From NCBI GenBank assembly GCA_963665285.1, contig OY762266.1:96001-160000 (forward strand): a stretch of 64,000 nucleotides of DNA. The letters are read 5' to 3'. Each line of letters starts with the position of its first letter. Position 1 is the first letter of the stretch. This document shows, one piece after another, positions 14,409 through 29,792 of the stretch. The notes beneath the pieces were generated by a model, which saw only the letters and a list, made by a program, of their open reading frames with translations, did no database searches and had not been told where the DNA came from. A program made the position numbers and the translations under genes. This stretch comes from Candidatus Poribacteria bacterium. Lineage in GTDB: Bacteria > Poribacteria > WGA-4E > PCPOR2b.

Positions 14409-17400
14409 TTATTTCTCCGTTGGCTGCTTTCCGTTTTCCTGATTTTGACCATTTAGACGCCACTCCTCAGATTGCCGCTCTAGTCTCCCGTAATCTTCTG
14501 GATTCTGAATATCAATGATATGTGGCGTGATAATAATGACAACTTCGGAATTTTCTGCTACGGTTTCCGTCTTTTTGAAGAGACCACCGATAAAGGGAAG
14601 GTCCCCCAGAATAGGCACCTTGCTTTCGATTTGTTGGCGTTTCTCTTTGATCATCCCACCCACCACAATCTGTTGTCCATCTTCTACATCAATGAAGGCA
14701 CTGATTGAGCTGTCTTCGGTAATGGGTGCGTTGAAGTCGGTAAACTCGACAAAATTACTCAAGGTAATCTGAGAAATATCAAGACCGATCGTGCGTTTCT
14801 TGCTATCCGCCGTTTGCGACTTCGCAATATGGGGTGTAATTGTGATAGTAACACCCACCGGGGGATCGATGAAGTCATAGTTGAAAAGTGGCTGCGTCAG
14901 ATTATCAGCCAGACTGGTAACATCTGCGCTTTGTAGATACGGGACGCGTCTGCCTGAACTCCATGTCGCTTCACGGTTATCACGGGTGAGCAGTGCCGGT
15001 GTCGATATGGTTTGCACCTTGTTTTCGCGTATCAACGTGTGGAGCAACGCCATATATTCCTTTGTCGCCAAGTTGATGTTGAAACCACTGATTTCCTGAC
15101 TCAATCCAAGTTCTGCTCCAAACTCTCCCACGAGCGGGTTGCGATTTCGGACCTCTGCGCCGAACAAACCACGTTCTCGTGCTGTTAACTCCACACCAAG
15201 TTTCGTACTTTCATCGAGGGTCACTTCGAGAATCTGTATATCAATCCAAACCTGTCCCCGCACAAAGTCAAGTTCGCGAATCATGGCTTCTACCTGTGCC
15301 ATGTACCGTTGCGCAGTCGTCACGAGCACCGAGTTGGTCTGATTGTCCGCTTCTACCTGAACTTGGCCACGTAGTGAATTGATGTCATTCTGTTCAGGTG
15401 TTCCACCGCGTGCAATGAAACGTCCAAAGTTGAATCCGCCGCGATCGTTTGCTGAGTCTTCGCCCCACACATCTTCGAGCAGATCTTCGATATCTTCAGC
15501 GTTTGCGTATTCAAGGCGGATTAGTTTGGTGATCTCTCGTTGACCTTCAGGGGTCGGTATGTCGAGCTCCTCAACGAACTGCGTAATGAGTGCAAAATTC
15601 CGTTGCGTTGCGGTGGAGACAATTACGGCGTTGAGCGTTGGATAAGCCTCTGCGGTCACATTTCCGGCAAGGGATCCTTGGTTCTGATTCCGCGCCCGTC
15701 CGGGGACAAAAAAGAAGAAACCGCCGCTCCTATTGTTTGAGCCTTGATAGACATTGTTGATAATATTGGCGACATTTTCCGCGTCTGCATGTTTCATTTT
15801 ATAAACGCGAGTTCCCCACTCCTGATCGGGCATGTTGACGTCAAGACGCTTAATCAAGCCGTCAATCGTCTCAAAGTTTTGGGAAGCGGTTGAGACCAAC
15901 AAGGCGTTCAAGCGGGTATCTGGCACAAGGTGAACCTCCCCTTGGACCCCAAATCCACCGGCACTCTCTCCTCGTTGTTCTTCGCGACGACGCCACCACC
16001 ACGGTAGGTCTTCATCCCGACCGGAATCGCCACCTTCAAAGAGATCGCGTAGGTTGTCGGATAAGCTTTGCGATTCGGCGAATTTCAGGAAATAAATTCG
16101 GATCTCCTCTTGTGGGTCTGCCTGATCCAGTTGTGCGATGATTTTCTGTATAATGGGGAAGTTTCGTGGATCGGAGGAAACAAGCACAGCGTTCAAGCGA
16201 TCGCTTGATGAGATATTTACGGCCCCAACGATGCTCTGATACTCACCCTCACCCTCGGTTCGCCGTCGCATCAGATCTCGTCGCGTCCGTTCCCACTCGC
16301 GCCGTTCCCACCATTCCGCACTTCTCCCGGGCCTCCTGCCTGCGCTTACGCCCGTGATTAACTCTTCAAGCGTCTGTGCAACATCTTGGGCAATTGCAAA
16401 ATTTAGCCGAAAGACTCTAATCTCAGTTTGAATGCTCGGTGCTGTGTCAAGCTGTCTAATCAGGTCCCTCAACACAACGAGGTTGGCTTCGGAGGCTTTC
16501 ACAACCAACGAGTTTGAGCTTTCGTCGGCAGAAATCTGGATCCGTCCACGAATCATGTCAATACCACCGCCTTCCTCTCTAGCACGCTCCATCATCTCCT
16601 GCATCTCTTCAGGCTTGCTTGTTGAGCCCATCTTTCGCAGGAGGTTCGCAACTTCACCTTCCTGCTGGAAAACACTATTCAAGGTCTGGGCGAGCGATGC
16701 CGCGGTGGCGTTCTGCAGCGGAATGATCTCCACTTTGAGCGGGGTGTCTGGTGCCTCATCCGCTACCTGTAAAATGGCTGTGATTCGATGGATATTGGAG
16801 GCGACGTCAGTAATGATCAACGAATTACTGTTCCCATCAGCGAAAATATTCGCTGCTTTGCTCAACAATGGTTTGAGGCTATTCACCAACTCCGAGGCAA
16901 CAGCGCTATTCAATTGAATTATGTATGTCTGAATCTCGTCGGTTTGTTCAATCAGATTTGGGTCTGCCACAATTCGTTTCACCGGCACTTTCATTTTGAC
17001 AGCCTTCTCAAATGTCGTGATCAGCAAGGTATTATTCGTCCGAATCATGGTCAGGTCGTACTGCGCGAGGACCGTTTTAATCTCTTCTAACGTTTCGTCA
17101 ATTGTCACGTTCTTGAGGTTGGTGAGTGCAAACTTCTTGTCCTTGATGTCGTTTTCGGAGGCAATAATTGTCAGATTCGTCTCTGCGCTGATGAATTTAA
17201 TTAGGCTTTGCAGATTCCCGCTTGGAAAGTCAAAGTTGAATCGAATCGCTTGACCGGCTTCGTCGCGCTCAGCAACTTCCATCCCTCTCTGATCGTCTTC
17301 CTGTGCCAACACCGACGCGGTAAAAAGTCCAGTAATGCCCCCAATGAATATCAATAGTATAAGGAAGATAAATACCCGAACGGTAGGGTGAGCACTGCCC

Positions 17401-28049: not shown

Positions 28050-29792
28050 TACGACTTCACCGATGTCAAACTCATCCTCTTGTGTGAGCCGTACAACTTC
28101 CTCGATGGTTGTGTAACCAGCAACCACTTTTCTCCAACCATCCTCCCGCAACGTTTTCATCCCTAGTCGCATTGCGGCACGTTTCAGTTGGCTTGCCGAC
28201 GCTCTTTGAATGGTCATCTCGCGCAATTCCTCACTCATTAGGATGACCTCAAAGAGTCCAATGCGTCCCTTATAACCACGACCTCGACACTCTTTGCAAC
28301 CGACCGCACGAGGGATAAGCAGATCGGAGGTAATGATTCCTGTTTGGCTGCCGAGTAGGTCTTGGATGCGCTCCGGTTCCGGCATATACATTTCATAGCA
28401 GTGCGGACACACCCGACGTGCAAGCCTTTGGGCAATAATGCCCTCCAGCGTTGAAGCAACTAAGTACGGTTCTACGCCCATATCCACCAAGCGAGTAACC
28501 GCACTTGATGCGTCGTTGGTATGCAGTGAGCTAAAGACCAGGTGCCCGGTCAGAGAGGTATGGATCCCCATCTCTGCTGTTTCATAGTCTCGGATTTCAC
28601 CGACTAGCACTTTATCCGGGTCTTGGCGGAGGATGTGCCTCAATCCCGCTGCAAAGGTCACATTTATCTCCGGATTCACCTGAATCTGGTTTATCCCTTC
28701 CAATTCATACTCAACCGGATCCTCTATCGTGATAATTTTGACGTCTGGGGTATTGATCTCTTTCAGACAGGCATACAGTGTTGTCGTTTTACCGCTGCCT
28801 GTTGGACCCGTTGCCAAGATAATGCCGTGTGGTCTCTGGATCATTCGGTAAAACTGATCCAAATTGTCCTCTAGCAAGCCGAGCTGTTCTAGACCGAACG
28901 AGATGGATTGCCTGTCGAGGATTCGCAGGACGACACTTTCGCCATGCACTGTGGGCACGGTCGAAACACGTAGGTCAATCTGGCGGTTGCCAACGCTCTG
29001 AACGGTCACGCCGATCTTTCCATCCAAAGGACGACGCCGTTCTGCTACGTTCATGCTTGCCATGATCTTGACACGGGAGGTAATTGCAGATTGGAGATGG
29101 GAAGGAGGGTTGGGTTGGTCTTCCAAAACACCGTCAATGCGGTAACGGATTTTGAGTTCACCGGGGAACGGTTCTATATGGATGTCACTGGCACCGAGGC
29201 GGACAGCGTCAATGATAATCTGATCTACAGCATTGATGACTGTCGGATCTTGGCTTAAATCCTGTTCGCTGATGCCAAAATCGTCAATCGTTTCACGCTC
29301 AAGCGTGGCGACGGCACCAACGGGTCCCTTGATTCCTTCGCTGAGGATAGCGGCGGCGGTCTTTCCATAGGCACGGATAATGGCTGCTTCGATGTCCCCT
29401 TCGTCCGCAAGCACCGGCTCAATCTCGCATTCCGTAACTAACCGCATCTCATCAATTAACCGGATATCCAACGCATCTGCCATCGCAACTGTAAGTGTTC
29501 CTTCACTCAGGCGAATTGGCAAGACCTTGTTCCGGTAAGCAAAACTCGCTGAAGCCCGCTCAGTTGCTTCATTATCCGGAATGATATCTTCAAGCAATAT
29601 GCACGGCACTCCGTACTCTAGAGCCCGTTTAGCGAGTGCGAGAGACTTGGAGTCCACAAACTTTGAGAGTGCTTGAGTATGGGTAACACCTGTTGCTTCA
29701 GCTTCTTCAAGAACCTGTTGATGCTCATCTTCGGAGATTAAATTTGAATCCAGTATCAGTTGTACTAATGAATTCCCCACCGCATTGCGCAT
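28047..29792 (-). CDS. gspE: Type II secretion ATPase GspE/PilB
   Basis: 'ASDIHIEP', Walker A 'GPTGSGKTTT', 'TIEDPVEY', 'LRQDPD', Zn motif CPHC...CKEC. Confidence 0.95.
   Translation of the reverse strand: MRNAVGNSLVQLILDSNLISEDEHQQVLEEAEATGVTHTQALSKFVDSKSLALAKRALEYGVPCILLEDIIPDNEATERASASFAYRNKVLPIRLSEGTLTVAMADALDIRLIDEMRLVTECEIEPVLADEGDIEAAIIRAYGKTAAAILSEGIKGPVGAVATLERETIDDFGISEQDLSQDPTVINAVDQIIIDAVRLGASDIHIEPFPGELKIRYRIDGVLEDQPNPPSHLQSAITSRVKIMASMNVAERRRPLDGKIGVTVQSVGNRQIDLRVSTVPTVHGESVVLRILDRQSISFGLEQLGLLEDNLDQFYRMIQRPHGIILATGPTGSGKTTTLYACLKEINTPDVKIITIEDPVEYELEGINQIQVNPEINVTFAAGLRHILRQDPDKVLVGEIRDYETAEMGIHTSLTGHLVFSSLHTNDASSAVTRLVDMGVEPYLVASTLEGIIAQRLARRVCPHCYEMYMPEPERIQDLLGSQTGIITSDLLIPRAVGCKECRGRGYKGRIGLFEVILMSEELREMTIQRASASQLKRAAMRLGMKTLREDGWRKVVAGYTTIEEVVRLTQEDEFDIGEVV

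Follow-up and report, generated by a model that had tools for sequence, protein, structure and literature searches.

What does a T2SS-like gene cluster transport, proteins or DNA, when two of its components bear HhH motifs and a restriction-modification (R-M) pair sits in its middle? The locus lies in a 64,000-nucleotide stretch of DNA from a Candidatus Poribacteria bacterium (contig OY762266.1, assembly GCA_963665285.1), here called the window, and a preliminary description had read it as a hybrid of T2SS and type IV pilus that handles DNA. Our analysis favors, with a probability of about 0.68, a Poribacteria T2SS cluster that exports folded periplasmic proteins and carries a passenger MTase-REase cassette between gspK and gspL.

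The cluster comprises 12 co-oriented ORFs on the minus strand, spanning positions 29792 to 14409 with gaps of -17 to 131 nt, and both profile searches and ORF coordinates confirmed the gene list, the shared strand and the order given earlier: E F G H I J K MTase REase PilM/N-fusion M D. Scans for promoters and terminators yielded about what chance would give (14 vs 18.7; 17 vs 16.5). The first gene, gspE (28047..29792), encodes an assembly ATPase with MshEN and T2SSE domains (TIGR02533, 588 bits for a cut-off of 630; PilB, 576 for 676), and is followed by gspF (26771..27994) for the inner-membrane platform (top match TIGR02120, 387 bits, cut-off 424). For both products the Gsp models score best, just below the T2SS cut-offs, and such GspE-best scoring is also true of the T4aP PilB of genome G020. 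The acidic major pseudopilin GspG (26285..26734; T2SSG, 130.4 bits) passes the curated T2SS cut-off (TIGR01710, 156.4 bits, cut-off 88.85). The minor pseudopilins GspH (25486..26217), GspI (25038..25502) and GspJ (24136..25041) all contain N_methyl and have Gsp/Xps models as top profile matches, yet under cut-off, and the tip pseudopilin GspK (22592..24124) scores over the T2SSK cut-off. At the other end, the gspD secretin (14409..17492), which has six Secretin_N repeats, exceeds the curated T2SS cut-off (TIGR02517, 408.9 bits for 351.35) and scores 207.5 bits on the PilQ model, under its cut-off of 284. Its loops, noticed earlier as Trp/Arg-rich, are conserved and rich in W, R and F, with net charges of +3 and -4.

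Next to these stand the two less typical platform proteins. The protein at the GspL position (19002..20705), a PilM/N fusion of the Amuc_1101 family (aa 1-552), has a cytoplasmic PilM-like domain, a TM segment near aa 375-395 and a periplasmic domain; no GspL model matched it and PilM_2 did. This layout of actin-like domain, TM and periplasmic domain would be equivalent to that of GspL. The GspM/PilO-like protein (17560..19005), identified from structure matches and orthologue scans, has a core that matches PilO (Z 12.5 and 12.3) above EpsM (Z 9.9) and PulM (Z 9.6) over 72-96 residues with rmsd of 1.8-2.6, and T2SSM_b matches weakly in 12 of 34 orthologues; Foldseek with the whole model gave no match at E<=0.001. 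Genes for GspC, the prepilin peptidase and PilT are indeed missing from the twelve ORFs. Two unlinked gspC-like genes are found at C1:5095302-5096042 and C1:2679219-2679998, with weak GspC_delta matches (E 2e-7 to 6e-6, under cut-off), and 8 of 43 relative loci have gspC placed between the M and D genes. An A24 prepilin peptidase (PF01478 over cut-off) is encoded, likewise unlinked, at C1:5132125.

The hybrid nature of the machine did not hold up. PilT (TIGR01420) was not found in the complete genome, nor was a PilU-type retraction ATPase, and PilT exceeds its cut-off in 13 of 176 phylum genomes and in none of the 19 of the same genus. The genome encodes only four N-methyl pilins (G, H, I and J), all within the cluster, and the PilA of G020 used as a tblastn query found no match in it. 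G020 itself encodes the start of the cluster (E, F, G and H) plus a separate pilA-pilT-pilB-pilC-pilM locus. The absence of PilT/PilU, of a PilA-type pilin and of a PilQ-type secretin speaks against a type IVa pilus at this locus. The gene order is unchanged in 38 order-level loci, within the reach of each contig, and in five basal loci, and a GspM orthologue is present in 169 of the 176 phylum genomes. Judged from these sequence comparisons, the cluster is likely a phylum-wide Poribacteria T2SS (gspEFGHIJK-L-M-[C]-D) with gspC-like genes and peptidase unlinked.

From what is known of the family, a pseudopilus of GspG with GspH, GspI, GspJ and GspK at its tip would be built, powered by GspE, on a platform of GspF, the L-position protein and GspM, and would push its cargo out by way of the GspD secretin; GspC and the prepilin peptidase would come from genes elsewhere in the genome. 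By this analogy, protein export is the likely function of the cluster. The likeness to Gsp/Xcp/Pul systems covers the full set of E, F, G, H, I, J, K, L-position, M and D in canonical order, the folds of GspK (XcpX; 3CI0, 5VTM, 6UTU) and GspM (EpsM, 1UV7; PulM, 7ZE0), the absence of PilT and the unlinked peptidase. The Poribacteria system differs in that its GspK contains four helical modules where two are usual, its GspM carries an HhH insert and long helices, its L-position protein is nearer to PilM, gspC is unlinked in most lineages and its secretin combines six N repeats with loops of aromatic/Arg type. If it is an ordinary T2SS, the cluster would be the chief way out of the cell for proteins in this abundant but uncultured phylum, and its four-module GspK, HhH-bearing GspM and six-repeat secretin make an odd architecture for such a system. 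Literature searches on type II secretion and transformation in Poribacteria and on GspK with HhH/ComEA showed, at the level of titles and abstracts, no account of this cluster.

The R-M genes had been taken as built into the operon, so that expression of the machine may be coupled to self-methylation and restriction. The first encodes a Type II N4/N6 DNA methyltransferase (21574..22578, minus strand, GC 0.42; PF01555, 156 bits; PADLOC MTase_II, E 1e-66) and is separated by a spacer with a genome-wide intergenic repeat (21443..21573; 172 blastn matches in the genome) from the gene for a putative PD-(D/E)xK restriction endonuclease (20771..21442, minus strand, GC 0.42). The latter assignment rests on a D...DVK motif, on ESM-Atlas neighbors that offer a lead toward SwaI-like, NgoBV and EcoRV enzymes (0.94-0.96) and on the constant pairing with the methylase, which lies upstream of the endonuclease in 23 of 23 loci; Pfam, NCBIfam and PADLOC returned no match for it, and a PDB sequence search nothing credible. 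Orthologous operons usually lack the R-M genes, an outcome that the preliminary description had itself named as speaking against its proposal: of 43 relative loci, 2 have the pair intact at the gspK-gspL site and 10 still have the methylase, so that with the window locus included the intact pair occurs in 3 of 20 g1/g4 loci and in none of 24 others. Away from this site, the same pair occurs on the chromosomes of G029 and G035; it is also present in 20 unrelated genomes, and none of 20 loci outside Poribacteria has it beside gsp genes. A second R-M system occupies the same slot in one genome, and no flanking repeats were found around the cassette. This synteny rules out the R-M pair as a fixed operon component, gives no support to the proposed coupling and identifies the pair as a mobile cassette, lineage-restricted and decaying. 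The cassette was probably acquired a single time, by the ancestor of genera g1 and g4, is undergoing repeated loss that starts with the endonuclease, and is likely a passenger between gspK and gspL. Within the genus the methylase shows 88-93% identity, a higher value than for GspK, and is therefore under selection for as long as it persists. Its scatter across phyla, low GC and frequent loss resemble the mobile Type II R-M systems and solitary methylases described in PMC4176335, whereas the Poribacteria cassette shows solitary methylases arising in place through decay of the endonuclease, which is rare in that paper. Palindrome avoidance in the genome is strong and is not assignable to this R-M pair.

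The HhH motifs reported in GspK and GspM are real, although the GspM copy is degenerate and truncated. GspK contains four HhH-type modules (about aa 140-198, 250-308, 322-381 and 392-467) and scores 120.7 bits on HHH_3, and its structural model gave six fold matches at E<=0.001, all of them XcpX/GspK. The homologue search for GspK took in close matches only, the best 120 of 550. As the preliminary description had cautioned, GspK normally has SAM/HhH-like subdomains, and the four modules are likely a doubled form of the normal two-module alpha-domain. HHH_3 is over cut-off in 25 of 60 GspK-like proteins from two other phyla, and labels of HHH_3/ComEA type are frequent on GspK and easily mislead. 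The modules share the HHH_3 fold family with ComEA (B. subtilis 8DFK, G. stearothermophilus 8DSS; PMC9747964), but the G-h-G hairpin is kept in 0/35, 3/35, 2/35 and 0/35 sequences of modules 1-4, against 21/21 for ComEA; Asp/Thr occupy the hairpin position, and the second-motif lysine (GIGEK in ComEA) is replaced. A lysine matching K164 of B. subtilis ComEA (numbering per PMC9747964) is present in 32 of 35 module 4 sequences and in 30 of 34 rows of the GspM insert column, and the Poribacteria ComEA is without its equivalent. The warning that the HhH copies are acidic applies to the GspK modules (mean charge -3.4 to -9.7) and not to the GspM insert, which is near neutral (mean +0.7), so a basic surface is lacking, to judge by sequence, in GspK only.

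In GspM the insert lies at about aa 87-137, in a protein that also has long helices, an acidic linker and, in some lineages, a Jag_N domain. HHH_3 gave no match at E<=0.01 in the GspM of the window; 15 of 34 orthologues matched it at E<=1, and among 18 distant homologues scanned 5 exceeded the Pfam cut-off, which places the insert, by sequence, in the HHH_3 fold family. None of 28 inserts has the G-h-G hairpin. The insert scores alike on the ComEA and GspK module-3 profiles and is likely a stray copy of the same fold as the GspK modules; it is missing from all six aligned members of family f2, which keeps ComEC in 98 of 98. Several findings leave the role of DNA receptors of ComEA type unsupported: the hairpin motif is lost, the modules of GspK are acidic, such domains are widespread in GspK, and they persist in genomes that lack comEC, comF and comEA. 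Structural, calcium or protein-contact roles are more likely than DNA binding for both proteins. Calcium is bound by GspK/XcpX (PMC6211770). DNA-binding HhH activity likely resides instead in a separate ComEA, whose unlinked gene encodes a TM-SLBB-HhH protein with both G-h-G hairpins kept.

Retention of ComEC and comF without a type IV pilus is left unexplained by protein export. A possible though doubtful alternative is that the T2SS secretes proteins and, in Poribacteria without PilT, also lets DNA in across the outer membrane, with a route from the secretin and its Arg/aromatic loops to the unlinked ComEA, ComEC, ComF, DprA and ComM; in that case the R-M cassette would remain incidental, as would probably the HhH copies. 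The main order would then have mostly lost the type IVa pilus, and, with the same low probability, a GspG-type T2SS, as the only filament machine left, would have taken over DNA uptake across the outer membrane, PilT-free and still secreting. Consistent with this, GspE is the sole T2SSE-family ATPase over cut-off in this complete genome, a single filament ATPase is found in 37 of 41 genomes of the relatives set, and the pilins are confined to the cluster. Nor does the genome lack comEC and dprA, which had been named as a point against DNA handling: besides comEA and comM it has comEC (258 bits, cut-off 190), two dprA, both over cut-off, and a ComF-like gene. ComEC is retained by 144 of 150 genomes, comF by 36 of 41. 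Although unlinked, comEC, comF and comEA are missing together in g8, g9 and g11, and therefore act as a working module in genomes that keep them. A second secretin, considered as the competence pore, was rejected, being patchy (32 of 154 genomes) and not tracking ComEC.

In favor of the protein-export reading, the cluster genes are kept in G026, G027, G030, G033 and G039. Searches of these five genomes detected no comF and either no comEC or a truncated one, and a stand-alone ComEA was likewise not detected in the four genomes searched for it; a caveat is that such competence-less genomes are MAGs of 40-420 contigs, 91-96% complete. Against a role in DNA entry, the competence-less lineages differ at only 9 scattered conserved positions over ten cluster proteins, with no charge shift and no basic patch lost, and a change of the cluster tracking competence-gene loss was discarded in this comparison of few and related genomes. 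Furthermore, all mature pseudopilins are on average net negative, the secretin loops carry the mixed charges given above and no uptake-sequence-like k-mer stands out. ComEC domains are reported from 89% of proteomes and 96% of genomes (PMC6299819), and because they are so widespread their retention is weak evidence. The Bacteroides thetaiotaomicron control has ComEC, DprA and HHH_3 matches without a T2SSE or secretin match; therefore filament-free ComEC retention occurs. The suggestion that the machine may carry DNA is partly supported, by the competence genes, the single filament ATPase and the four pilins. If dual use is true, a canonical T2SS that lacks a retraction motor would bring DNA into more than 100 species, with a bearing on DNA uptake by ComEC-bearing bacteria without type IV pili.

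Two further known systems come close in parts. The Campylobacter jejuni Cts system (PMC10046745) resembles the Poribacteria set, at the level of gene content, in combining a T2SS/T4P-type machine with unlinked ComE and ComEC, and methylation takes part in DNA discrimination there; it differs in that its uptake is demonstrated, while uptake by the Poribacteria machine would be hypothetical and the methylase is patchy. Thermus thermophilus ComZ (PMC6561018) is likewise a GspK-like tip pilin with an inserted domain, a beta-solenoid on a type IV pilus that binds DNA via lysines, in contrast to the acidic helical modules of the Poribacteria GspK.

Very improbable is the original proposal of a dedicated DNA uptake or export hybrid with DNA-binding HhH domains in GspK and GspM and a co-expressed R-M pair to mark its own DNA and cut foreign DNA: it is already contradicted by the synteny, since the pair is mostly missing from the operon and recurs at unrelated sites, IS elements also insert into the same operon, the hairpins are degenerate and the cluster outlasts the loss of competence genes. 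Slightly less probable still is a surface pilus without PilT, used to adhere or to attach to a host, with the enlarged GspK as tip adhesin instead of a secretion piston. This would suit the PilM/PilO-like platform proteins, the enlarged tip pilin and a faint likeness to the Amuc_1098-1101 pilus cluster of Akkermansia, but is opposed by the T2SSG-type major pilin, the GspD-type secretin over cut-off and the existence of gspC-like partner genes.

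In 14409-29792, 12 co-oriented ORFs lie on the minus strand with intergenic distances of -17 to 131 nt (the host genome is a single contig of 6.26 Mb, 99% complete). According to Pfam and NCBIfam, which bear out the gene order of the preliminary description, they encode GspE, F, G, H, I, J and K, an N4/N6 methyltransferase (MTase), a 223-aa ORF that neither database named (REase), a PilM-like protein in the L position with a TM around residue 375, a GspM-like protein and, last, a GspD secretin with six Secretin_N repeats. GspD and GspG passed the T2SS cut-offs (409 bits vs 351 and 156 vs 89, respectively), the PilQ model stayed below its cut-off on the secretin, and for GspE and GspF the Gsp models were the top scorers, yet slightly below cut-off. 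The predicted structure of GspK (pLDDT 78.5) gave six Foldseek matches at E<=0.001, all of them to XcpX/GspK, and the GspM core is structurally similar to PilO, EpsM and PulM. GspL models did not match the L-position protein, whose PilM-like domain, TM and periplasmic domain we take to be the customary GspL layout. We consider, with a probability of about two thirds, that the cluster is a variant T2SS in which some domains are unusually expanded and which carries an R-M cassette as a passenger; no published description of it was found in a search of titles and abstracts.

The preliminary description had pointed to comEC, comF and dprA as genes to look for, and the genome indeed encodes ComEC, a ComF-like protein and two DprA, together with ComM and a TM-SLBB-HhH ComEA, none of them linked. 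ComEC is present in 144 of the 150 genomes of at least 90% completeness. It is absent or truncated in G026, G027, G030, G033 and G039, in which comF was not found either, and absent in G013, whose completeness is 88%. Searches for a stand-alone ComEA were negative in G026, G030, G033, G039 and G068, four of which keep DprA. The MAGs without these competence genes retain the cluster genes and the HhH modules with no telling sequence change, and therefore the cluster has a job that is independent of DNA import. A dual use, in which the same T2SS also serves DNA entry, is favored by the single filament ATPase and four N-methyl pilins of the genome, by the finding of exactly one filament ATPase in 37 of 41 genomes, and by a second secretin whose distribution does not follow ComEC. 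If Poribacteria are transformable, DNA would pass the outer membrane via the cluster secretin or a filament-free route, for which PMC10046745, PMC6668835 and PMC8811193 offer precedents. However, ComEC is nearly universal according to PMC6299819, and because of this we regard dual use as an unlikely, minority reading.

GspK contains four HhH modules. Among 60 GspK-like proteins of two other phyla (the best 30 matches from each of two 61-genome searches), 25 passed the HHH_3 cut-off and 36 reached E<=1e-4, and true ComEA conversely matches T2SSK; because HHH_3 is common in the GspK of these phyla, the four-module GspK is an expansion of a normal feature. The HhH insert of GspM, judged from its sequence, is also real: it is a discrete block, absent from all six alignment rows of family f2, and its profile recovered multi-HHH_3 proteins among 1.84 billion representatives, with distant homologues above cut-off. 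PMC9747964 describes DNA binding by ComEA through HhH backbone contacts and lysines. The G-h-G hairpin is present in all 21 Poribacteria ComEAs, in 0, 3, 2 and 0 of 35 GspK modules 1-4, respectively, and in none of 28 GspM inserts; the hairpin position holds a conserved Asp or Thr, and the GIGEK lysine is lost. Thus, the HhH domains called ComEA-like in the preliminary description exist in both proteins, but not with these ComEA features. The lysine equivalent to K164 (B. subtilis ComEA numbering) is retained in GspK module 4 and in the GspM insert, a point in favor of the DNA uptake or export machine that had been proposed. Mean net charge is -3.4 to -9.7 in the GspK modules, +0.4 in ComEA and +0.7 in the GspM insert; charge by itself cannot tell this insert from ComEA. 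Calcium binding, described for XcpX/GspK in PMC6211770, would be a likelier use of the acidic residues of the GspK modules. The W/R/F-rich secretin loops are conserved across the order, with a net charge near neutral (+3 and -4 in the two measured). Jag_N accompanies the HhH insert in some basal-lineage GspMs (P0139-P0141 by Pfam on the proteins; a similar segment by eye in L097:10565-12007 and L098:5646-6962). Five genus g7 loci of f2 (L035, L038-L041) have two tandem secretins at the operon end and a GspM without the insert. HHH_3 modules also occur inside a G026 TPR protein (L103:85-2307; homologue of the window's TPR ORF, 10943-13027) and terminate a 612-aa protein of genus g11 (L102:1286-3124), suggesting that the module is easily mobile within the phylum.

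The R-M pair did not hold up as a built-in component. Excluding the fragmentary G016 and G020, the K-L junction holds an intact MTase in 10 of 38 loci and an intact REase in 2 of 38, neither gene was found at this junction in the five basal loci, and every case belongs to genera g1 and g4. Among the 20 loci of these genera, window included, three have the intact pair, eight an MTase with a broken, remnant or absent REase, two a 54-nt MTase scar, and seven no recognisable trace. These states are scattered over a FastTree tree of E, F, K, L and D with some weak nodes, which fits one insertion followed by repeated loss, and exchange among relatives could also explain it. GC is 0.42 in both genes vs 0.45-0.51 in the eight cluster genes measured. 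Outside Poribacteria, the REase comes after the same MTase in all 20 loci, with no gsp genes in the flank covered (up to 3 kb), and G029 and G035 carry the pair at other chromosomal sites. Against a passenger cassette we count the good conservation of the MTase where retained and a second R-M system, C5 methylase plus Bpu10I-like endonuclease, in the slot after the MTase of G018 (L015:9394-11562); however, IS elements also enter the operon. IS200/IS605-like elements, so named by eye, lie between G and H (L005:3522-4688) and between M and D (L013:12986-13441). Coupling of the machine to R-M is very unlikely. The 223-aa ORF is a putative REase from its motif, MTase pairing and ESM-Atlas neighbours. 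The MTase-REase spacer (21443-21573) contains a repeat with 172 blastn matches in the genome, and in L046 it measures only 12 nt. Palindromes are strongly avoided genome-wide (observed/expected: GGCC 0.19, TTCGAA 0.09, CTCGAG 0.17, GGTACC 0.17, CCWGG 0.23), suggesting many R-M systems.

Finally, gspC and the prepilin peptidase are missing from the cluster, as had been noted, but elsewhere the genome encodes an A24 peptidase and has two gspC-like genes, one solitary and one adjoining a second GspD gene. The solitary one (L170:5303-6043 = G000:C1:5095302-5096042), flanked by two dioxygenase-like paralogues, encodes a product with partial 32-41% identity to the in-operon gspC of relatives, whose M-gspC-D order occurs in 8 of 43 loci. 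The second gspC-gspD pair (L042:9794-17770 = G000:C1:2676794-2684770), present in 32 of 154 genomes, is possibly a dedicated cargo set; its secretin has FG/RGG-rich loops, and the locus holds four of the genome's six ORFs with such segments. A GspM orthologue was found in 169 of 176 phylum genomes, and, within the reach of each contig, the gene order is kept in 38 loci at order level and in 5 basal ones. With 11 candidates scored in each genome, 13 of 176 had a PilT above cut-off, none of them in the window's genus or in families f2, f3 and f4; the type IV pilus appears to have been lost by most of this order. In G020, gspE-F-G-H lie on one contig and pilA-pilT-pilB-pilC-minor pilins-pilM on another, and this separate pil locus, together with the T2SS-type scores and folds, indicates that the cluster is a T2SS and the pilus a distinct system; an adhesion pilus is scarcely credible. 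A PKD/Ig-domain protein gene lies between gspJ and gspK in G027 (L027:6035-6889). A halogenase-like flavoprotein gene (13070-14344) lies 64 nt after gspD, as in 18 of 18 genus g1 loci, and from this arrangement may be co-transcribed with the cluster.
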